Positions 1-6,529 of a stretch of DNA of 6,529 nucleotides are shown piece after piece; within the stretch, counting starts at the first letter, position 1, and each line of letters opens with the position of its first letter. A program made the translations under genes and the position numbers. The stretch lies in IMG/VR virus record IMGVR_UViG_3300045988_008314, positions 1 to 6,529 of that record. One strand, written 5' to 3'. Source of the stretch: a virus. Below the pieces are notes generated by a model, which saw only the letters and a program-made list of their open reading frames with translations, searched no databases and was not told where the DNA came from.

Positions 1-141
1 CAATGCCAGGTGATAAGTTTACTTTGAAGCGTCAACATTTTACTCGTACTCAGCCTGTTAACACGTCTGCGTATACTCGTATTCGTGAATACTATGATTG
101 GTTCTGGGTCCCCCTTCACCTTCTTTGGCGCAATGCTCCCG
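1..141. repeat. Left copy of the 141-nt exact terminal redundancy (circular-genome assembly overlap)
   Basis: Base-by-base comparison shows it is identical to 6389-6529. The reading frame of ORF 3..1667 is continuous with the frame opened at 6268 (offset 6388). Confidence 0.97.
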
Positions 142-1667
142 AGGTTATCTCTCAAATGCAGTCTAATGTTCAGCATGCTGGTTCACATACTTCTGCGTTA
201 ACTCTTGGTAATTCTCTTCCTACTGTTACTTTGGCCCAGTTGTCTGACGTTTTTTCTCGCCTTTCCGGTAAGTCTAATTATTTTGGATTTAGCCGTGCAG
301 ATTTGTCTTATAAGTTGATGCAATATCTTCGTTTTGGTAATGCTAATAATTCAACTTCTCATAATTATGGTACTTCTGTTCCATTTAATACTTCTGGTTA
401 TAGTCAGAAATTTCGGTTTAACTTGCATGTGTCTATATTCCCTTTGTTGGCTTATAAGAAATTTTGTCAGGATTATTTTCGTTATTCCCAGTGGCAAGAT
501 TCAAGTCCTTATTTGTGGAATATAGATTATTATACTGGGACTTCTCAGTCCTTGTTTTCATCTATTCCTTCTGTCGGTGATTTATATTGGCAAAGTAATA
601 CCATGTTTGACCTTGAGTATTGTAACTGGAATAAGGATATATTCATGGGTGTTCTTCCTGATTCCCAATTCGGTGATGTGGCGTCTATCGATACAGGTGG
701 ATTGAAGGCTCAGGACTTGTCTGTTCAGGCTAAAATATCTTCTTCCAAAACTACCTCTGTATATCTTGGCAATAAGATTTCTTCCTCTGCCACTGATTTT
801 GCTATTAATCCTGGTCCTGATGGCGTTGCGTCAAATCCTTTGATTGTTTCCCTTCCGGCTGTTGCTGCATCATTTGATGTTCTTGCTCTTCGTCGTGGTG
901 AGGCTCTTCAACGTTGGAAAGAAATTTCTTTGAATGTCCCGCAAAACTATCGTGCTCAGGTTAAGGCTCATTTTGGTGTTGATGTTGGTGAAAATATGTC
1001 CGGTATGTCTACTTATATCGGTGGTGATTCTTCATCTCTTGATATCTCCGAGATTGTCAATACGAATCTTCAATCTGGTGACACTTCTTCTGAGGCTGTT
1101 ATTGCTGGTAAAGGTGTTGGTTCTTCGCAAGGTTCTGAAAAATTCGAGGCTCGTGATTGGGGTGTATTGATGTGTATCTATCACAATGTTCCTCTTTTGG
1201 ATTATGTGTCTTCTGCTCCTGACCCTCAGTTATTTGTTTCTCAGAATACAGATTTGCCTATTCCTGAGTTGGATTCTATTGGTATGCAATCTATTCCTGT
1301 TTCTATGTATTCTAATAGTGATATTGAATTAGTTACTGGATTCAATTCTTCTGATTTTACTATGGGTTATCTTCCCAGGTATTATAATTGGAAGACTTCG
1401 TATGATTATGTATTAGGCTCTTTCACTACTACTGAAAAGGAATGGGTTGCTCCTATTACTCCCGCTATTTGGGGCAATATGTTGTCTACCGTGACTACTG
1501 GTTCGTCTTCTATCACTTATAATATTTTTAAGGTGAATCCTTCTGTTCTTGATAGTATTTTTCAAGTGAATGCCGATTCAAAATGGGATACAGACCAGTT
1601 CTTGATTAACTGTGCGTTTGATGTTAAAGTAGTTCGTAATTTGGATTATTCCGGAATGCCTTATTGA
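3..1667 (+). CDS. VP1: Major capsid protein VP1, residues 42-595 (the 5' end lies at 6268-6390 across the circular junction)
   Basis: This is a 554-codon open frame with T3-rich codon usage, in frame with 6268 given the 6388 offset. The stop is TGA at 1665-1667. It is the largest ORF, in the position expected for a microvirus capsid gene. Confidence 0.93.
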   Translation: MPGDKFTLKRQHFTRTQPVNTSAYTRIREYYDWFWVPLHLLWRNAPEVISQMQSNVQHAGSHTSALTLGNSLPTVTLAQLSDVFSRLSGKSNYFGFSRADLSYKLMQYLRFGNANNSTSHNYGTSVPFNTSGYSQKFRFNLHVSIFPLLAYKKFCQDYFRYSQWQDSSPYLWNIDYYTGTSQSLFSSIPSVGDLYWQSNTMFDLEYCNWNKDIFMGVLPDSQFGDVASIDTGGLKAQDLSVQAKISSSKTTSVYLGNKISSSATDFAINPGPDGVASNPLIVSLPAVAASFDVLALRRGEALQRWKEISLNVPQNYRAQVKAHFGVDVGENMSGMSTYIGGDSSSLDISEIVNTNLQSGDTSSEAVIAGKGVGSSQGSEKFEARDWGVLMCIYHNVPLLDYVSSAPDPQLFVSQNTDLPIPELDSIGMQSIPVSMYSNSDIELVTGFNSSDFTMGYLPRYYNWKTSYDYVLGSFTTTEKEWVAPITPAIWGNMLSTVTTGSSSITYNIFKVNPSVLDSIFQVNADSKWDTDQFLINCAFDVKVVRNLDYSGMPY

Positions 1668-1668
1668 T

Positions 1669-2118
1669 ATGAAAAAGAAAGAATATTTACAACATGATTT
1701 TAATGGTTCTTTTGATGATATTCATACTAAAGTTCCTGTACAAGATAAGTTAATGCAGTTGTCTACTTTTAAAGATAAAGACGGTTCTATTACTATTTCT
1801 ACTGATATTTCGTTGATTTTTAATCAACAAAGATTGGAGAATAAATTGACTGCTACTGAATTGCGTGAATATATTCAGCGTTATACACCTAATAAGTCGG
1901 TGTATACTGCGCAATTGGATGATGAGACTCTTTTGAATACTCTTAAATCGAGACATATTCAATCTCTTTCTGAGATGCGTTCTTGGGCTGAATATTGTAT
2001 GGAAAATTATGATTCATTAATCAAAGAATCTGAGGAAAAGGCCCGTCTTGCTGCTGAGCAGGCTACTCTTGAACAGACTGCTGCTGGTGATTCTTCTGCT
2101 TCTGCAACACCTGAATAG
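1669..2118 (+). CDS. Hypothetical 149-aa protein; possible internal scaffolding or assembly protein (function inferred from position only)
   Basis: Its ATG lies 1 nt after the VP1 stop and its own stop lies 2 nt before the VP2 ATG. Codon usage is T3-rich like the structural genes. The tail is acidic and Ala-rich (EEKARLAAEQATLEQTAAGDSSASATPE). I recognise no family motif. Confidence 0.8.
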   Translation: MKKKEYLQHDFNGSFDDIHTKVPVQDKLMQLSTFKDKDGSITISTDISLIFNQQRLENKLTATELREYIQRYTPNKSVYTAQLDDETLLNTLKSRHIQSLSEMRSWAEYCMENYDSLIKESEEKARLAAEQATLEQTAAGDSSASATPE

Positions 2119-2120
2119 TT

Positions 2121-3314
2121 ATGGCTTTTAAAGATTTTGCGAGCGGATTATTTGGCGGTATTGGTTCTGTGATTTCTGGTGCTATTGGTGCTAAGACCAC
2201 GGCCGATACTAATAAGACTAATCTCAAGATTAATCAGATGAATAATGATTTCAACGCTCGTGAAGCCCAAAAAGCCCGTGATTTTCAGTTGAATATGTGG
2301 AATAGGGAAAATGAGTATAACAAGGCTTCTTCTCAGCGTAAAAGGCTGGAAGAAGCAGGTTATAATCCTTATATGAGTGATGCACAGGCTGGTTCTGCTT
2401 CTGGTATGTCCGGCACTTCTGCTGCTTCTGCTGCTGGTGCTACTCCTCAAATTCCATATACTCCTGATTTTCAGTCTGTTGGTGTTAATTTGGCTTCTGC
2501 GTTGAAAATGATGTCCGAAAAGAAACAAACTGATATTGAGAATCTCAATATGTCTGATTTGTTGCGTTCTCAGATTTGGCAGAATATTGGTGCTACTGAT
2601 TGGCGTAACGCTTCTCCTGAGGCTCGTGCGTATAATCTTTCTCAAGGTCGTAAGGCTGCCGAACTTGGTATGGCTTCTCTTGAGGAGAATCTTTCCAATC
2701 AACGTTGGTCTAATAATTTGCTTGTTGCTAACATTGCGAATTCTCTTCTTGATGCTGAGGCGAAAACTGTTATGAATAAGTATCTCGATGAAAATCAGCG
2801 TGCCGAATTGAATATTAAGGCGGCTAATTATGAGTATCTTATCATGTCTGGCCAAATGAAGCGTCAAGAAGTGAATAATCTTATTGCTGATGAACTTTTG
2901 ACTTATGCGAAAGCGAATGGCCAGAAGATCTCTAATCGTATTGCTGAAGAAACCGCAGATAAATTGATTAAGGCTACTAATAATACCAATATGTATTTTG
3001 GTGGTTATTATGGTTCTCGTGGTTCTTATTCTCGGCAAGATGCATTTCACGATTCTTCTATTCTTCGTTCTCGTGCTGGTTCTGCTGCTGAAGATTATCA
3101 GCAATCTCGATTTGATACGAAGTTACAGCCTTGGCGTGAGGCTGTTAATTCTGCTAATATGATTTTTAATGGTATTGGTTCTGGTTTGGATTCTTATACC
3201 AATTATCAGAATGGTCGTTATAATCGAGGTAGACCTTACTTTATGGATTACGATGAATACTATGATGATAATAACGGAAAGAGTTCCGTTCGTTCTAAAC
3301 GACATCGTAGATAA
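2121..3314 (+). CDS. VP2: Minor capsid / DNA pilot protein VP2 (phiX H analogue), 397 aa
   Basis: The N-terminus is Gly-rich and hydrophobic (FGGIGSVISGAIGA). It is followed by NAREAQKARDFQLNMWNRENEYNKASSQRKRLEEAGYNPYMS, which matches the conserved microvirus VP2 segment (FQErM-N-a-qR---dl-aAGlNP). There is a Ser/Ala low-complexity linker and the gene sits downstream of the capsid gene. Confidence 0.85.
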   Translation: MAFKDFASGLFGGIGSVISGAIGAKTTADTNKTNLKINQMNNDFNAREAQKARDFQLNMWNRENEYNKASSQRKRLEEAGYNPYMSDAQAGSASGMSGTSAASAAGATPQIPYTPDFQSVGVNLASALKMMSEKKQTDIENLNMSDLLRSQIWQNIGATDWRNASPEARAYNLSQGRKAAELGMASLEENLSNQRWSNNLLVANIANSLLDAEAKTVMNKYLDENQRAELNIKAANYEYLIMSGQMKRQEVNNLIADELLTYAKANGQKISNRIAEETADKLIKATNNTNMYFGGYYGSRGSYSRQDAFHDSSILRSRAGSAAEDYQQSRFDTKLQPWREAVNSANMIFNGIGSGLDSYTNYQNGRYNRGRPYFMDYDEYYDDNNGKSSVRSKRHRR

Positions 3315-3347
3315 TCTGTTTCATTATCATGTTTTAATATTGCCTTT

Positions 3348-3385
3348 ATGCACTGGCTCGTGATGAGTCGGTGCATTTTATTTAT
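3348..3385 (+). terminator. Intrinsic terminator of the Rep-to-VP2 transcription unit
   Basis: The hairpin atgcactggctc / gtgat / gagtcggtgcat (3348-3376) has a 12-bp stem including 2 G:U pairs and a 5-nt loop. It is followed by tttatttat (3377-3385) and starts 34 nt after the VP2 stop. Confidence 0.7.
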
Positions 3386-3411
3386 ATAGTTGTTCTCTTT
3401 TGTGCGGAGCA

Positions 3412-3437
3412 AAACGGGTTTCACATCTATCCCGTTT
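3412..3437 (+). repeat. Small hairpin aaacggg / 12-nt loop / cccgttt; its 3' arm is one of two direct TCCCGTTT(T)CC copies (second copy at 3523-3533)
   Basis: The inverted heptamers at 3412-3418 and 3431-3437, and the direct copy at 3524-3530, were read directly from the sequence. Confidence 0.5.
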
Positions 3438-3489
3438 CCACCTCTCTCGTCCGAGATTGGCAAAAGTGACACCAATAAAAATGCAAAAC

Positions 3490-3503
3490 ATGTTATATAA
3501 CAT
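3490..3503. promoter_or_regulatory. Perfect 14-bp palindrome ATGTTATATAACAT, a candidate operator or protein-binding site just upstream of the -33 element
   Basis: It is perfectly self-complementary and is flanked by the 7-bp inverted repeat acaccaa (3469-3475) / ttggtgt (3514-3520). It ends 9 nt before the TTTG at 3513. Confidence 0.4.
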
Positions 3504-3512
3504 ATAATTTAA

Positions 3513-3544
3513 TTTGGTGTATTCCCGTTTTCCCCTTATCTTTG
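3513..3544 (+). promoter_or_regulatory. Bacteroidetes-type promoter for the small-ORF cassette: -33 TTTG (3513-3516), 20-nt spacer, -7 TAtcTTTG (3537-3544)
   Basis: It matches the Bacteroides consensus (TTTG, 19-21 nt, TAnnTTTG) exactly. The ATG of the 59-aa ORF lies 27 nt downstream of the -7 box. Confidence 0.6.
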
Positions 3545-3570
3545 TAATGTAATAATTAAAACGATATATT

Positions 3571-3750
3571 ATGAAACAGAAAGTTAATGATTGGTTATTG
3601 CGGTTGGTTCGCATTGATTCTTGTGGAAATAGAGAAGTCTCTCATGTTTGTCTTTATGACATGTCCAGAACTCAAGTTATGAAACTTGCTGAGGATTATG
3701 GTAAAGATTTTGCTGCTGTTCGTGTGTTTAAACTTGAAGTTATACTTTGA
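3571..3750 (+). CDS. Hypothetical 59-aa protein (MKQKVNDWLLRLVRIDSCGNREVSHVCLYDMSRTQVMKLAEDYGKDFAAVRVFKLEVIL), absent from the supplied ORF track
   Basis: I translated it by hand: ATG at 3571, TGA at 3748-3750. Third positions are T-rich like the bona fide genes. A promoter match lies upstream and a GC hairpin downstream. The composition is non-repetitive and globular-looking. Confidence 0.6.
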   Translation: MKQKVNDWLLRLVRIDSCGNREVSHVCLYDMSRTQVMKLAEDYGKDFAAVRVFKLEVIL

Positions 3751-3762
3751 TTATTATGGTTC

Positions 3763-3806
3763 CCCGCGCGGATTTCGTGCACTTAAGCGCGGGTTTACCT
3801 TATTTA
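3763..3806 (+). terminator. GC-clamped hairpin (cccgcgc / 17-nt loop / gcgcggg) followed by a T-rich tail; possible terminator or attenuator between the two small ORFs
   Basis: The 7-bp all-Watson-Crick stem pairs 3763-3769 with 3787-3793. The loop contains the palindrome gtgcac and the tail is tttaccttattta. The large loop makes it atypical for an intrinsic terminator. Confidence 0.4.
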
Positions 3807-3834
3807 TATTATTAACAATTTAAATTTTACAATT

Positions 3835-4026
3835 ATGAAACTTTTAATGACTGTACAACCGAAAACTGGTGAAAAGCCTTCTGACCCAATGTTGATTGAT
3901 ACAAACGAAAACGATTTGTGTTGCCTCGCTGATGACTTTCTGCGTGCTGGCGATAAGGTTCTGATTTTTCAGCCCGTAACTGAATATAAGGTTACCCCTT
4001 GCGGAAACTGTGACAAAAAAGAATAG
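3835..4026 (+). CDS. Hypothetical 63-aa acidic protein with a Cys pair at each end (CC, then C-G-N-C)
   Basis: The ORF is in the track, on the same strand as all other genes, with an AT-rich leader. A poly-pyrimidine tract follows the stop. There is no family motif and the codon bias is weaker than in the structural genes. Confidence 0.5.
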   Translation: MKLLMTVQPKTGEKPSDPMLIDTNENDLCCLADDFLRAGDKVLIFQPVTEYKVTPCGNCDKKE

Positions 4027-4064
4027 TTTTTCTTTTTTTTCTTCCGACACCGCTTATTATTGAC

Positions 4065-4196
4065 AAATTGTGAAGACTGCACCAAGCGTTATTGTATTGA
4101 AAATTGTTAATATCGTGTGTGTGCGAAGTTTACGTAGCACGCGCGCGAAATTAATAATTTTTGATACAATGTTGATTGGTGCTTTCTTCACAATTT
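4065..4196 (+). other. 132-nt extended hairpin (imperfect inverted repeat); candidate complementary-strand origin or structured element of the encapsidated + strand or of the rep leader
   Basis: Positions i and j pair with i+j=8261 from 4065/4196 to 4124/4137, with no bulges. Of 60 stacked positions, 47 are Watson-Crick, 8 are G:T and 5 are mismatches (4077, 4078, 4086, 4089, 4112). The apex is gaagtttacgta. The inner stem is built from alternating (GT)n on one arm against (GC)n on the other. Confidence 0.85.
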
Positions 4197-4207
4197 ACCT
4201 ACCTTTG
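4176..4207 (+). promoter_or_regulatory. Candidate Bacteroidetes-type promoter for rep and the late block: -7 TAccTTTG (4200-4207) with a partial -33 (TTG at 4176-4178)
   Basis: The -7 box matches TAnnTTTG exactly. The -33 element has only TTG at a 21-nt spacing. It would give a leader of roughly 110 nt before the ATG at 4325. Confidence 0.4.
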
Positions 4208-4324
4208 CGGTTTCGTAAGATTAAAAGTAAAAGTATTCTTTACCTGCGCGGAGCGCAAATTGTTCGCAACTCTGTTGCGTGCTTTATGGATTCTATGTGA
4301 TTAACATCCAAAATAAGAAGAAAT

Positions 4325-6046
4325 ATGTCTGACAAGGTTCGTAATTTTTTCAATCGTTGCGAGCATCCTCGTATAATAAAAAATAAGTATACAGGTGAAC
4401 CTGTTTATGTTAAGTGTGGTGTTTGTCCTCATTGCTTGATTTCGCGTTCTGATGCGAAAAGAAACTTGTGTGATTATGAAAAGTGGAATCGTAAGTATTG
4501 TTACTTTGTAACATTGACTTATAATTCGCAGTATGTCCCGAAAATGGCGCTTGTACCTATTGATGATTATGAATTTGATTATCCGATAGGTAATAATTGG
4601 CCAGCTGTCCGTTCTCAGTTGCTTACGCGTATATTAATTGACCCTCGAGTAAAAAAACAGGATAATGGACAGGATATTAATATGTTTACCTGTAAGGTAA
4701 ATTTCCCTTACATAGATGAGCATTTGAAATCTATATTTGATTCCTGTGTTACTGCTGCTGAGTTTCGAAAGAATTACAAACCTGAGTATTTTTCTTCCGC
4801 TCGTCCTTATATTCTTCGTACTATCCCTCGTGTGTCTAAGTTGCAGAAATTTAAAGACGTTCAGCGTGAAGAACTTATTTGGATTTCTCCTGAAAAGGTT
4901 GAGATGCTTAAGAGAAAATCTAAATGTGAAGGCAATGATAATGCTTTCCCTCAATTTAAAGGACTTCTTAAGTATGTGAATTATCGTGATTATCAACTTT
5001 TTGCGAAACGTTTTCGCAAATATTTATTTACAAAAATTGGTTCATATGAAAAAATATCTTCATACGTTGTATCGGAGTACTCTCCTAAGACATTCCGCCC
5101 GCATTTCCATATCTTATTTTTCTTTGACTCGGACGAAGTCGCCGAAAACATTCGGCAAGCTGTATTTCAGAGTTGGAAACTCGGTCGTGTCGATACGCAG
5201 CTTGCAAGGGACTCTGCCGGTTCATACGTATCGGGCTATCTTAATAGCCTTGTGTCTCTCCCCAGCATTTTTACGGACGTCTCGTTTACAAAAAATAAGT
5301 CGCGGTTTAGCAAATTATTTGGATATGAAAGCTTTCGACAAACAGTTAAAACACCTGAACAAGCAGTCGAACGCTTATCTGAGCGAATACGCTTTGTCCG
5401 TAATGGCAAGTCTTGCGAACTCACTCCCCCCATTTCGTATATCTCTCGATTATTGCCAAGATTCGTACCATACAGCAATAATTTTTCTGTCGAAACTCGA
5501 ACAGTTATTACAGCAATTCGAGGCGTATTACAACTCTTTAGACGAAACGAACCCTTTAAAAAAGAAACTCCTACAAATGTATCCGAGTTTATACACACCT
5601 ATGTCGTGACGTTGTATGAAAAGTATGGTTATTGTTTTGATTCTCTTCCTGAGTGTCTTCGTGTCTATCTTGCTTATACGCGCTCTGCCAAGGAAATTCA
5701 TTACTTCACTGATAGACTCAAGAATAAGCTTTGCCGTCCCCTATATATATATCGTGTGTGGGAGTCTCTTGGTTTATCTGATGATTATCTCATTTCTTTG
5801 TCTGATGAATACATGTCTAAGTGTCGATCTATGTCCTTAGAAAAACAGTTAAGTATTCAGCAGGAAATGTTCGAGCGTGAAGGTTATTCGGATGAACTTC
5901 TATCTTTATTTTATATTAATAAACCTCAAAAGAAAGTTAATAATCCTTATTTTCAGGAATGGAAGGATAAGAATTACCATGAAGTACATTATATTCGCGT
6001 AAAACATAAGAAATTAAATGATGAAAATAATGTATTTTTGGAATAA
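4325..6046 (+). CDS. VP4: Rolling-circle replication initiator VP4 (phiX A homologue, HUH superfamily), 573 aa
   Basis: Motif I is FVTLTY (aa 61-66, nt 4505-4522). The HUH motif is RPHFHILFFF (H260-F-H262, nt 5102-5110). The catalytic Tyr pair is SYVSGYLNS (Y301 and Y305, nt 5225-5239). The N-terminal Cys/His cluster is C-E-H, then C-G-V-C-P-H-C, as in other microvirus Reps. Confidence 0.93.
   Translation: MSDKVRNFFNRCEHPRIIKNKYTGEPVYVKCGVCPHCLISRSDAKRNLCDYEKWNRKYCYFVTLTYNSQYVPKMALVPIDDYEFDYPIGNNWPAVRSQLLTRILIDPRVKKQDNGQDINMFTCKVNFPYIDEHLKSIFDSCVTAAEFRKNYKPEYFSSARPYILRTIPRVSKLQKFKDVQREELIWISPEKVEMLKRKSKCEGNDNAFPQFKGLLKYVNYRDYQLFAKRFRKYLFTKIGSYEKISSYVVSEYSPKTFRPHFHILFFFDSDEVAENIRQAVFQSWKLGRVDTQLARDSAGSYVSGYLNSLVSLPSIFTDVSFTKNKSRFSKLFGYESFRQTVKTPEQAVERLSERIRFVRNGKSCELTPPISYISRLLPRFVPYSNNFSVETRTVITAIRGVLQLFRRNEPFKKETPTNVSEFIHTYVVTLYEKYGYCFDSLPECLRVYLAYTRSAKEIHYFTDRLKNKLCRPLYIYRVWESLGLSDDYLISLSDEYMSKCRSMSLEKQLSIQQEMFEREGYSDELLSLFYINKPQKKVNNPYFQEWKDKNYHEVHYIRVKHKKLNDENNVFLE
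5046..5609 (+). CDS. Candidate overprinted ORF in the +1 frame of VP4 (187 aa from ATG 5046; alternative start ATG 5325 gives 94 aa)
   Basis: The track ORF 4986..5609 begins at GTG, and the first ATG is at 5046. Its span coincides with a local loss of the genome-wide T3 codon bias in VP4. The C-terminal 94 aa (MKAFDKQLKHLNKQSNAYLSEYALSVMASLANS...SKLEQLLQQFEAYYNSLDETNPLKKKLLQMY) look protein-like rather than like the hydrophobic off-frame products seen elsewhere. Confidence 0.3.
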   Translation: MKKYLHTLYRSTLLRHSARISISYFSLTRTKSPKTFGKLYFRVGNSVVSIRSLQGTLPVHTYRAILIALCLSPAFLRTSRLQKISRGLANYLDMKAFDKQLKHLNKQSNAYLSEYALSVMASLANSLPPFRISLDYCQDSYHTAIIFLSKLEQLLQQFEAYYNSLDETNPLKKKLLQMYPSLYTPMS

Positions 6047-6060
6047 TTATCTTTGTATTT

Positions 6061-6264
6061 ATGAAAATTACATCTCAGCAATGGATTGAAGTTGTTAAAT
6101 TGATTTCTACTTTCATTATTGGCCTTATTACGGCTTTGTGTGTTCAGTCTTGTACTGCGTCTATGTCTGTTTTTTGGAAAAATAGTAATTCTAATCAAGA
6201 GAGTCAGCAAACTACGAAACAGTCTGTTGATTCTACTCGTATTAATGTTCAACCAAATTTTTAG
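6061..6264 (+). CDS. Hypothetical 67-aa membrane-anchored or lipoprotein-like protein; candidate lysis or exclusion factor
   Basis: It starts 14 nt after the VP4 stop and its stop lies 3 nt before the VP1 ATG. Codons are T3-rich. There is one hydrophobic helix (KLISTFIIGLITALCV), followed by Q-S-C (a possible lipobox-like VQSC) and a polar N/Q/S-rich tail. Confidence 0.7.
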   Translation: MKITSQQWIEVVKLISTFIIGLITALCVQSCTASMSVFWKNSNSNQESQQTTKQSVDSTRINVQPNF

Positions 6265-6267
6265 TTT

Positions 6268-6529
6268 ATGAGTTTATTTTCTTTGAAAGACATTCGTAAC
6301 CACCCTCGACGCTCGGCATTTGACCTTTCGTCCAAGGTTGCTTTTTCTGCAAAATCGGGTGAACTTCTTCCGATTAAATGGTATTTTACAATGCCAGGTG
6401 ATAAGTTTACTTTGAAGCGTCAACATTTTACTCGTACTCAGCCTGTTAACACGTCTGCGTATACTCGTATTCGTGAATACTATGATTGGTTCTGGGTCCC
6501 CCTTCACCTTCTTTGGCGCAATGCTCCCG
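6268..6529 (+). CDS. VP1: Major capsid protein VP1 (phiX F homologue), N-terminal part, running off the window end and continuing at base 3
   Basis: The ATG at 6268 is the first codon after the in-frame TAG at 6262-6264. It translates as MSLFSLKDIRNHPRRSAFDLSSKVAFSAKSGELLPIKWYFTMPGDKFTLKRQHFTRTQPVNTSAYTRIREYYDWFWVPLHLLW. The FDLS, GELLP, PGD-F, TRT-P and EYYD-F-VP-LLW pattern is the conserved microvirus capsid N-terminus. This ORF is not in the supplied track because no stop falls inside the window. Confidence 0.93.
   Translation, partial: MSLFSLKDIRNHPRRSAFDLSSKVAFSAKSGELLPIKWYFTMPGDKFTLKRQHFTRTQPVNTSAYTRIREYYDWFWVPLHLLWRNAP
6389..6529. repeat. Right copy of the 141-nt exact terminal redundancy
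   Basis: Identical to 1-141. Confidence 0.97.

Follow-up and report, generated by a model that had tools for sequence, protein, structure and literature searches.

Why should a phage gene that ends most of its codons in T lose this preference for some 560 nt and then resume it? The question is raised by VP4, the replication initiator (Rep) gene in positions 1 to 6,529 of the IMG/VR virus record IMGVR_UViG_3300045988_008314, a 6529-nt stretch of DNA that we call the window. An initial annotation of this stretch had noticed that the break in codon usage falls over an open reading frame (ORF) in the +1 frame relative to VP4 and had suggested an overprinted gene, while allowing that a recombinant patch with foreign codon usage or a cis-acting element embedded in rep would fit equally well. 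We refer to the ORF, which has 187 codons and runs on the plus strand from ATG 5046 to TGA 5607-5609, as X. Taken together, sequence comparison and structure prediction make it very probable that 5046-5609 codes for two proteins, the catalytic core of Rep and, overprinted in the +1 frame, X. The conserved open frame, the suppression of synonymous variation in Rep, the selection estimates for the X frame, and a set of fixed codons all support overprinting as the origin of the island, and neither of the two alternatives was borne out as its cause.

Codon-Usage Island in the Rep Frame

The genes of the window favor T at third codon positions (T3), at frequencies of 0.60 in VP1, 0.60 in VP2, and 0.55 in a scaffold-like ORF. 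Such a T-ending bias in single-stranded DNA (ssDNA) phages is usually put down to C-to-T deamination. In VP4, counts taken over 30 codons at a time give 12-21 T-ending codons up to ∼5040, 8-12 from 5045 to ∼5629, and 18-19 from 5585/5630; expressed as a percentage, third-position T falls from ∼55-60% outside to ∼30% between 5045 and 5610. These sliding counts define an island at 5045-5610 on the plus strand in which T3 is lost and C3, A3, and CpG are gained. CpG occurs 5-8 times per 90 nt within the island versus 1-5 times outside, the GC content is 0.42-0.53 versus ∼0.35 elsewhere, and 5336-5543 holds six of the nine CGA codons of VP4. The drop in T3 at ∼5050-5610 and its recovery afterward, the rise in CpG, and the presence of at least six CGA codons had all been pointed out in the initial annotation, and the counts agree with each of these observations. 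The proposed coincidence between the limits of the island and those of the +1 ORF is likewise confirmed by the ORF list and the 30-codon counts.

The same third-position dip lies over the +1 ORF in all of the large-Rep relatives that we examined. When third positions are pooled over 10 lineages, the composition inside X is A 0.25, C 0.24, G 0.15, and T 0.36 (0.364), versus A 0.18, C 0.10, G 0.18, and T 0.54 (0.539) outside. Position 3 of a Rep codon is position 2 of an X codon, and third positions inside X are shifted toward the second-position makeup of the real genes in the window (A 0.36, C 0.25, G 0.14, T 0.26). The CGA codons had been predicted to yield Asp or Glu in the +1 frame, and they do so: X Glu114, encoded through the CGA at 5384, does not vary in a 13-sequence alignment, and X Asp139, to which the CGA or AGA at 5459 corresponds, hardly varies among deep lineages. 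The description of other +1 ORFs in this genome as hydrophobic artifacts of the T3 bias also holds: VP1, VP2, and the 5′ portion of VP4 have +1 frames with grand average of hydropathy (GRAVY) values between +1.15 and +1.68, and the 3′ portion of VP4 has one with a value of +0.50. For X itself, the GRAVY is -0.15, versus +1.26 (sd 0.16) expected had Rep used the genome's codon usage in this region. A scan of VP1 and VP2 for further third-position dips or overprinted genes found none comparable.

Open +1 Frame across Large-Rep Microviruses

X lies wholly inside VP4 and spans Rep aa 241-428, and the +1 ORF extends from GTG 4986 or ATG 5046 to TGA 5607-5609. Over the same nucleotides, the ancestral frame encodes both catalytic motifs of Rep and ∼120 residues after them. 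The HUH motif, RPHFHIL (aa 258-264; 5096-5116, plus strand), was located from the translation and alignments, and the X start lies 17 codons upstream of it. The tyrosine motif, YVSGYLNS (aa 301-308; 5225-5248, plus strand), contains Y301, Y305, N307, and S308, all of which are invariant in the Rep alignment of relatives.

The open frame is not a product of chance. Synonymous shuffling within the region, with the Rep protein held fixed, left none of 20,000 +1 frames open (6.4 stops expected), and sampling from genome-wide codon usage gave P(open) = 0.011 for the +1 frame of the window. Synonymous shuffling in 10 lineages, which are unlike one another at the majority of Rep positions, gave P(open) values between 0 and 0.04 in every one; with the Rep protein fixed, 2.3-6.1 +1 stops were expected per lineage and none were observed.

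The nearest database relatives are uncultured fecal microviruses, 15 of which are IMG/VR genomes with 85-92% Rep identity; VP4 nucleotide identity among the 16 close genomes is 83-95%. Bajarodmic viruses 585 and 849 and Dulem virus 256 stand at ∼54% Rep identity, and hundreds more relatives are found at 25-35%, including phiHBP1, a cultured phage of Bacteroides fragilis. X is open in all 15 of the relatives with 85-92% Rep identity and in four at ∼54%, where it starts with MKKYL and ends at the same or an adjacent codon. At 27-33% Rep identity, Dulem 263, mar56, phiHBP1 (N-terminus of X, MKRFTTTLLESMDQQLSVRISMCYFSS), and Tortoise microvirus 40 have +1 ORFs of 168-218 codons in the same place, each with the dip. 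The frame is also open in 65 of 65 further IMG/VR genomes with 25-49% Rep identity, over 176-206 codons, with the +2 control frame open for 12-44 codons; the first Met lies at -17 codons from the RPH.H motif in 63 of them, and of the remaining two, L046 likewise has a Met at that distance. X is also present in four additional large-Rep genomes (Rep 500-660 aa). The totals are thus 19 closer and 73 more distant large-Rep microviruses, or about 95 genomes down to ∼25% Rep identity. Where X could be delimited in relatives, its length is 164-196 aa, and its stop lies 158-182 codons past the HUH motif. The initial annotation had singled out persistence of the frame and its start in homologues as informative, and no stop interrupts X in any of the 15 + 4 + 73 relatives. 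In the GenBank records of these relatives, nothing is annotated in the X frame.

Three of four small-Rep, gokushovirus-like outgroups do not have X; their +1 ORFs are 5-38 codons long and there is no third-position dip. The fourth outgroup, L111 (robinz microvirus RP_188, MZ364294.1; Rep 283 aa), has a hydrophobic +1 ORF of 189 codons across the HUH region, which is probably an artifact of T3 bias.

Selection on Both Frames

Among the 16 close genomes, the mean pairwise synonymous difference in Rep is 0.150 inside X versus 0.279 in both flanks (Mann-Whitney p = 1.2e-11), so that synonymous variability across 5050-5610, which had been proposed as a decisive measurement, is indeed suppressed. 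Within X, the difference is 0.112 in the proximal half and 0.188 in the distal half, and it is 0.279 again directly after 5610. The suppression is strongest at 4950-5324 and reaches ∼95 nt upstream of the X ATG, beyond what the ORF alone accounts for.

Selection in the alternate frame was assessed with our own OLGenie-style estimator for this frame relationship, in which dNN refers to changes that are nonsynonymous in both frames and dNS to changes that are nonsynonymous in Rep and synonymous in X. The dNN/dNS of the X frame is 0.32 (bootstrap interval 0.20-0.45), with 0.26 in the distal half; the comparison values are 0.69 and 0.67 for the Rep flanks and 1.2 for the +2 control frame. For changes that are synonymous in Rep and nonsynonymous in X, dSN is 0.24 inside versus 0.54-0.57 outside. 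An overlapping-gene test of this kind had been suggested beforehand, and its outcome supports purifying selection on X. In the distal half, identity is 0.30 for X, 0.32 for Rep, and 0.235 for the +2 frame.

The constraint can also be followed at single codons. At Rep residues that are conserved across 11 deep lineages, the fixed codons inside X are TAC, CCG, TTC, CCC, TTA, CGA, and GCG, versus TAT, TTT, GAT, and TGT outside X, as expected. The dominant codon does not end in T in 21 of 36 conserved columns inside X, compared with 3 of 25 outside (Fisher p = 4e-4), in a hand tally restricted to amino acids that have a T-ending codon. As a codon anchor, we use Rep Ser371, whose TCG codon (5435-5437, plus strand) overlaps the CGT codon of X Arg131 (5436-5438). 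This serine is encoded by TCG in all 78 genomes in which the site was located, where TCG makes up 10.7% of Rep Ser codons outside X, and X Arg131 is invariant in 79 X sequences. At the level of sequence, dual coding and its evolutionary signature are established.

We propose that these patterns follow from the register of the two frames, a mechanism that the codon-level data support. Position 3 of each Rep codon is position 2 of an X codon, which is the position that sets the chemical class of the amino acid, and T-ending Rep codons would accordingly fill X with Phe, Leu, Ile, Met, and Val. Because the T3 bias would make X hydrophobic, selection on X would show as a loss of third-position T in Rep. 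Selection for a soluble, folded, and basic X would, on this proposal, override the T3 bias of the genome and fix the non-T Rep codons TCG, CCG, CCC, TAC, TTC, TTA, CGA, and GCG; it would also remove +1 stops and halve the synonymous variation of Rep.

Predicted Structure and Homologues of X

X is basic in every lineage, with an isoelectric point (pI) of 9.9-10.8 in all 73 X sequences and a net charge of at least +10 in each of 11 representatives tabulated. This charge lies chiefly in residues 1-56 (pI 11.45, net charge +11), in keeping with the earlier description of the proximal part as basic, and the distal half, described as helix-like, is mostly predicted helix. AlphaFold2 run on a 79-sequence X alignment returned a mean predicted local distance difference test score (pLDDT) of 86.8 and a predicted template modeling score (pTM) of 0.81; a run on 13 mostly close X sequences was uninformative (pLDDT 52.8). 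The model consists of a five-strand sheet packed on helices, with four N-terminal strands (residues 2-51), a fifth strand at 131-135, and helices at 58-76, 80-85, 91-105, 109-126, 140-164, and 170-183. The nucleotides of the Rep tyrosine motif are read in X within the central helix, residues 58-76, and in the model the hydrophobic stretch over this motif is a core helix and not a membrane segment.

Foldseek searches with the X model found no neighbor in the PDB (best E = 0.58) and nothing significant in BFVD, where the best match was A0A4P8W6E5 (E = 0.03, TM 0.34). Pfam searches with X and 78 homologues gave no match at E ≤ 0.01 and five scattered single-member matches at E ≤ 0.1, and neither PHROGs nor a sequence-profile search of the PDB gave a match to X. 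A profile search of 1.84 billion representative proteins retrieved 154 clusters (50% identity), most of them ∼160-200 aa in length and matching most of the profile, and a set of 5.8 billion proteins yielded 159 X proteins, none of which is meaningfully named. X is called occasionally by gene callers, mostly on short contigs in which Rep is cut off; the three contigs with X matches that we checked are microvirus genomes or fragments.

Conserved Stretch Upstream of X and Expression Signals

Directly upstream of the X start is the stretch of the genome that is most conserved among close relatives (4951-5045, plus strand), with 96.6-98.6% identity over 4951-5100 versus 80-90% elsewhere and a Rep synonymous diversity of 0.112 at 4951-5045 (p = 5e-6). 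It contains a perfect 9-bp hairpin at 5000-5020, TTTGCGAAA-cgt-TTTCGCAAA, followed by a T-rich tail, TATTTATTTA, an arrangement that resembles an intrinsic terminator. The hairpin and the extreme conservation are confined to the close set and are lost in the 54% lineage and beyond, and when the 100 nt that precede the ATG were folded for 10 lineages, no shared structure emerged. These results do not support a hairpin or origin upstream of X that is conserved across lineages. The stretch at 4951-5045 may be a translation-initiation or regulatory region for X, an attenuator, an origin, or a separate cis element. We also considered an antisense ORF at 4993-5151 (52 aa), under the conserved stretch, as a third coding layer and discarded it, as it has stops in all of the more distant lineages.

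In the phiHBP1 lineage, AAGGAG is present 8 nt upstream of the X ATG. Sites of the sigma-70 type are not enriched in the window (11 found vs 7.8, sd 2.6), and terminator-like structures number 3 vs 1.1 (sd 1.0). The Bacteroides-type promoter motif TTTG-N17-23-TAnnTTTG has one match in the genome, at 3513-3544 (TTTG-N20-TATCTTTG), which is not near X and compares with 0.47 matches expected by chance.

Alternative Explanations

The island could have been acquired by recombination from another microvirus or from a source with different codon usage. Its locally raised GC content is in line with such an event, as is the weak correlation, among the 16 close genomes, between pairwise distances in the island and those in the Rep flanks (Spearman 0.14-0.15, versus 0.51 from flank to flank). 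This weak agreement may reflect recombination between close relatives or the small number of substitutions in the island, and the segments agree in deep structure, with L017 and L019 the most distant genomes in the island and in both Rep flanks. Some recombination among the close relatives is possible, and all of them carry the island. Import of the island itself is nonetheless exceedingly improbable, because every large-Rep lineage, at Rep identities from 92% to ∼25%, has the dip and the open frame at the corresponding position, so that they are ancestral, and because the best DNA matches of the island (Dulem 256 and bajarodmic 585 and 849) are those of the whole genome. The concern that the patch might simply be foreign, voiced when the island was first described, is answered by its presence in all large-Rep lineages and by these matches to the genome's own relatives. 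A foreign patch would, moreover, drift to the T3 bias instead of keeping TCG in 78 of 78 genomes, and it would not stay free of +1 stops. A cis-acting element in rep (a nick site or origin for Rep, a signal for packaging, or a structured region) might instead constrain these nucleotides in place of a second protein. The most conserved stretch, 4951-5100, begins ∼95 nt before the X ATG and includes the hairpin with its T-rich tail, synonymous suppression peaks at 4950-5324, and a CAACTT hexamer within 4951-5100 resembles the start of the phiX174 origin. An origin, however, occupies tens of nucleotides, not 560, and the hairpin and extreme conservation do not persist beyond the close set. A cis element would also leave unaccounted for the absence of +1 stops in about 95 genomes, the basic and foldable product, and the agreement between island limits and ORF limits, and it cannot account for a dNN/dNS of 0.32 alongside a neutral +2 control. 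We regard it as highly improbable as the source of the island, although a separate cis element at 4951-5045 beside X is possible.

Two further explanations accept the open frame and dispute what it means. X might be a conserved but nonfunctional ORF, a by-product of amino acid constraint on the Rep core together with local composition. The proximal half does overlie the most conserved Rep residues, so that some +1 conservation is automatic; the Leu+Arg+Ser fraction of X is high, the flanks also give dNN/dNS values below 1, and the small-Rep outgroup L111 has its hydrophobic 189-codon +1 ORF. What makes a by-product very unlikely is that the 2.3-6.1 stops expected per lineage are never seen, that disfavored codons which do not vary between lineages occur at conserved Rep residues only inside X, and that the distal half, which lies over poorly conserved Rep, is still open with a dNN/dNS of 0.26. 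Furthermore, both the ORF and the dip are missing from three of the four small-Rep microviruses, although these share the catalytic core. Alternatively, the X frame might be expressed solely as a trans-frame fusion of the Rep N-terminus to X through +1 ribosomal frameshifting. In favor of a fusion, the open +1 frame of the window begins at 4980, 22 codons before the ATG, and in L012 and L015 it extends upstream much further; the stretch just upstream of X is extremely conserved, and in Dulem 256 the reading frame of Rep changes elsewhere, at an A10 run. In the majority of distant lineages, however, only 2-4 codons separate the ATG from a preceding +1 stop (ORF start at -19 to -21, Met at -17), which leaves almost no space for a shift site. 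All 79 X sequences keep the start Met, and the Rep residue encoded there may be Tyr, Asp, or Asn, always with a codon that ends in T and is followed by G; no conserved slippery motif was seen. Expression of X by fusion alone would consequently come as a considerable surprise.

Several points weigh against X as a second gene. X is known in every member, phiHBP1 included, from sequence and predicted structure alone. The OLGenie-style and synonymous-diversity tests use sequence pairs and not a phylogeny, and the dNN/dNS baseline in the flanks is already below 1 (0.67-0.69), which indicates that the frame relationship is biased. Conservation of X, chiefly of residues 1-85, is partly a by-product of the highly conserved Rep core. 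The mean pLDDT of 86.8 stands without a same-depth alignment of a noncoding +1 frame for comparison. No clear Shine-Dalgarno sequence or promoter was found before the X ATG in the window, Tortoise microvirus 40 has no Met at -17, and L103-L107 differ in where X starts. Finally, the Leu+Arg+Ser content of X, 0.32-0.42, is nearer to that of noncoding ORFs than to that of known overprinted genes, for which values of ∼30% and ∼23%, respectively, have been given (PMC9865509).

Translation, Origin, and Possible Function

If X is a second gene, ribosomes probably initiate on it independently, at the conserved ATG of either the Rep mRNA or an internal transcript, by analogy with phiX174 B. We favor independent initiation over a frameshift fusion because the ATG is conserved and has a +1 stop just upstream in most lineages. 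GTG 4986 was rejected as the start of X; it is lost in L012 and L015 (CGT to AGA), and most of the distant lineages have a +1 stop 2-4 codons ahead of the ATG.

We infer that Rep is the ancestral frame and X the derived one, because three of four small-Rep microviruses have the Rep core without X. A de novo origin is suggested by the lack of sequence or fold relatives of X together with its absence from the same three microviruses, and X probably arose by overprinting in an ancestor of the large-Rep, Alpavirinae-like, Bacteroidales-linked microviruses. Its function can be approached by analogy. X might, tentatively, be a nucleic-acid-binding accessory factor for ssDNA synthesis or packaging, with the role of gokushovirus VP5 or phiX174 C/J; this suggestion, to which we give less than even weight, is made because X is basic in every lineage and the clade has no recognized equivalent of VP5, C, or J. 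A role in lysis seems less likely, because a membrane segment is lacking in X and an M15 peptidase is present in some relatives. Going further, one may speculate, again with doubt prevailing, that X is an essential fourth core gene that defines the clade of Alpavirinae-type gut microviruses, born de novo on the best-conserved part of an HUH endonuclease gene, with a compact α/β fold unseen in the PDB and among predicted viral structures, and that it supplies a DNA-binding, replication-switch, or packaging function for which no gene is recognized.

Comparison with Known Systems

Like the B and K genes of phiX174, X lies on the same strand as a microvirus rolling-circle Rep gene, is nested in it out of frame, and constrains its synonymous sites. 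It is unlike them in that no sequence relationship was detected (Pfam, PHROGs, PDB sequence) and, at ∼187 aa, it is longer than B and K, which have 120 and 56 aa. X also differs from B in beginning 17 codons before the HUH motif, in covering both catalytic motifs, and in being strongly basic. The precedent of B and K, which the initial annotation had cited, thus holds for overprinting inside Rep but not for position, since X covers the catalytic core and B lies in the less conserved C-terminal part of A (PMC9865509). Both B and K are overprinted genes that gene callers miss (PMC9865509), and X is missed in the same way. The window has a separate scaffold-like gene at 1669-2118, so a B-like role for X is not needed.

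A second case within the microviruses is OG63 of the reekeekeeviruses, an ORF inferred to be overprinted in the C-terminal end of Rep (PMC9865509). OG63 and X were both found computationally in a microvirus Rep, from conservation and selection statistics, and neither was predicted by software. OG63 belongs to the clade of smallest microviruses, with a Rep of ∼300 aa, and occupies the C-terminal end and not the catalytic core; the two are set apart by description only. Many overprinted proteins are short or disordered, and X departs from these in being predicted as a compact α/β domain, with no structural neighbor in the PDB or BFVD. It resembles the de novo overprinted viral proteins reviewed by Pavesi (PMC8227390) in its restricted distribution, its lack of homologues outside the clade, its status as the younger frame, its basicity, and its enrichment in Leu, Arg, and Ser. 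Alpavirinae-type genomes have no recognizable VP5 (Roux 2012, PMC3394797). X is similar in basicity to gokushovirus VP5 and phiX174 C/J, a functional analogy only in which DNA binding is putative; it differs from them in that no sequence or fold similarity was detected, in its larger size, and in being nested instead of free-standing.

We found no published description of the X ORF in the searchable literature, subscription-only papers being outside the scope of the search. The paper on phiHBP1 reports 8 encoded proteins and mentions no gene overlap (PMC13064476), and the main survey of microvirus diversity omits overprinted ORFs by its own statement (PMC9239249). Overprinting in the microvirus Rep is already known from phiX174 B and K and from the reekeekeeviruses (PMC9865509); X would add a further case. 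What is unusual in X is its position over the catalytic core, its universality in an abundant group of gut phages, and a confidently predicted and apparently new fold.

Alpavirinae-type microviruses are among the commonest phages of the mammalian gut, and functions are recognized for only three of their genes; a universally conserved yet unannotated X changes the gene count of the whole group. X would also be a clean case of de novo gene birth, in that the older frame is an ancient catalytic core, which makes the direction of origin clear, and the younger protein is predicted to be well folded. The proposal is testable in a cultured member, phiHBP1 on Bacteroides fragilis, where X can be removed by single mutations that are synonymous in Rep. 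As a method, local loss of third-position T in T3-biased ssDNA phages may serve as a simple marker, readable from a single sequence, of an overprinted gene in the +1 frame.

Genome Context and Other Observations

The window is a complete or near-complete microvirus genome in which all recognizable genes are on the plus strand. VP1, the major capsid protein (3-1667; Pfam Phage_F), is followed by the scaffold-like ORF (1669-2118, 149 aa), the VP2 pilot protein (2121-3314), and VP4/Rep (4325-6046, 573 aa), the ancestral frame that hosts X. Rep matches Pfam PF23343 REP_ORF2-G2P at aa 219-307 and PHROG 942, replication initiation protein, and its counterparts in relatives carry the annotation replication initiator protein; VP1 and Rep are the only proteins of the window with Pfam matches. 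Peptidase genes are located between VP2 and VP4 in mar56, Dulem 264, and L113. The traits given for Alpavirinae are a long Rep (>500 aa), the gene order VP1-VP2-VP4 with few additional genes that can be recognized, a link to the gut and Bacteroidales, and M15 peptidase cassettes in some members (Roux 2012, PMC3394797). Judged by its sequence, the window genome matches this type in its long Rep, its gene order, its few recognizable genes, the M15 peptidase cassettes of some relatives, and the Bacteroides host of its cultured relative, which is a likeness and not a formal placement.

Long ORFs occur elsewhere in the genome. One of 318 aa lies antisense to VP2 (2148-3104, minus strand), and +1 ORFs are found in VP1 and VP2 at 334-525, 934-1170, and 2536-2775 (plus strand), with hydrophobic products unlike X. 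These are most simply by-products of the T-ending codon bias, because T at position 3 prevents stops in those frames.

Between VP2 and VP4, the segments 3421-3480 and 4141-4230 stand well out from the sequence around them, with 95-97% identity among close relatives, and are candidate promoters or replication origins. Only 2-8 of the 15 close relatives align over 3541-3750, where a 59-aa ORF (3571-3750) lies in a replaceable cassette with the Bacteroides-type promoter match at 3513-3544 just upstream. At the 3′ end of VP4, 5890-6043 is a second zone of low synonymous variation (0.159 vs 0.279, p = 6e-5), in which no conserved overlapping ORF is obvious; it precedes a 67-aa ORF at 6061-6264 and may hold expression signals for that ORF or some other element. 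The 67-aa ORF directly follows Rep, contains the hydrophobic stretch LISTFIIGLITALCVQSC, and could encode a protein of the membrane or one related to lysis; relatives have an ORF of comparable size at the same place, annotated as hypothetical.

Two variations within Rep were also recorded. In Dulem virus 256 (L018, PP511387.1), a run of ten A residues at 5014-5023 (TTGAAAAAAAAAACAAG) marks the point where Rep passes from one frame to another, and a -1 shift is needed to restore it. The split is seen by tblastn in all three records, the coding sequence in PP511387.1 is given as two joined pieces, and no run of this kind is present in the window; the cause could be slippage, in transcription or on the ribosome, or else a homopolymer error. 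In L009, L011, and L013-L015, the N-terminal part of Rep carries an Arg-rich insertion of 14 residues (MFSQETRMRARRPV) at alignment columns ∼172-185, which correspond to ∼4660 in the window.

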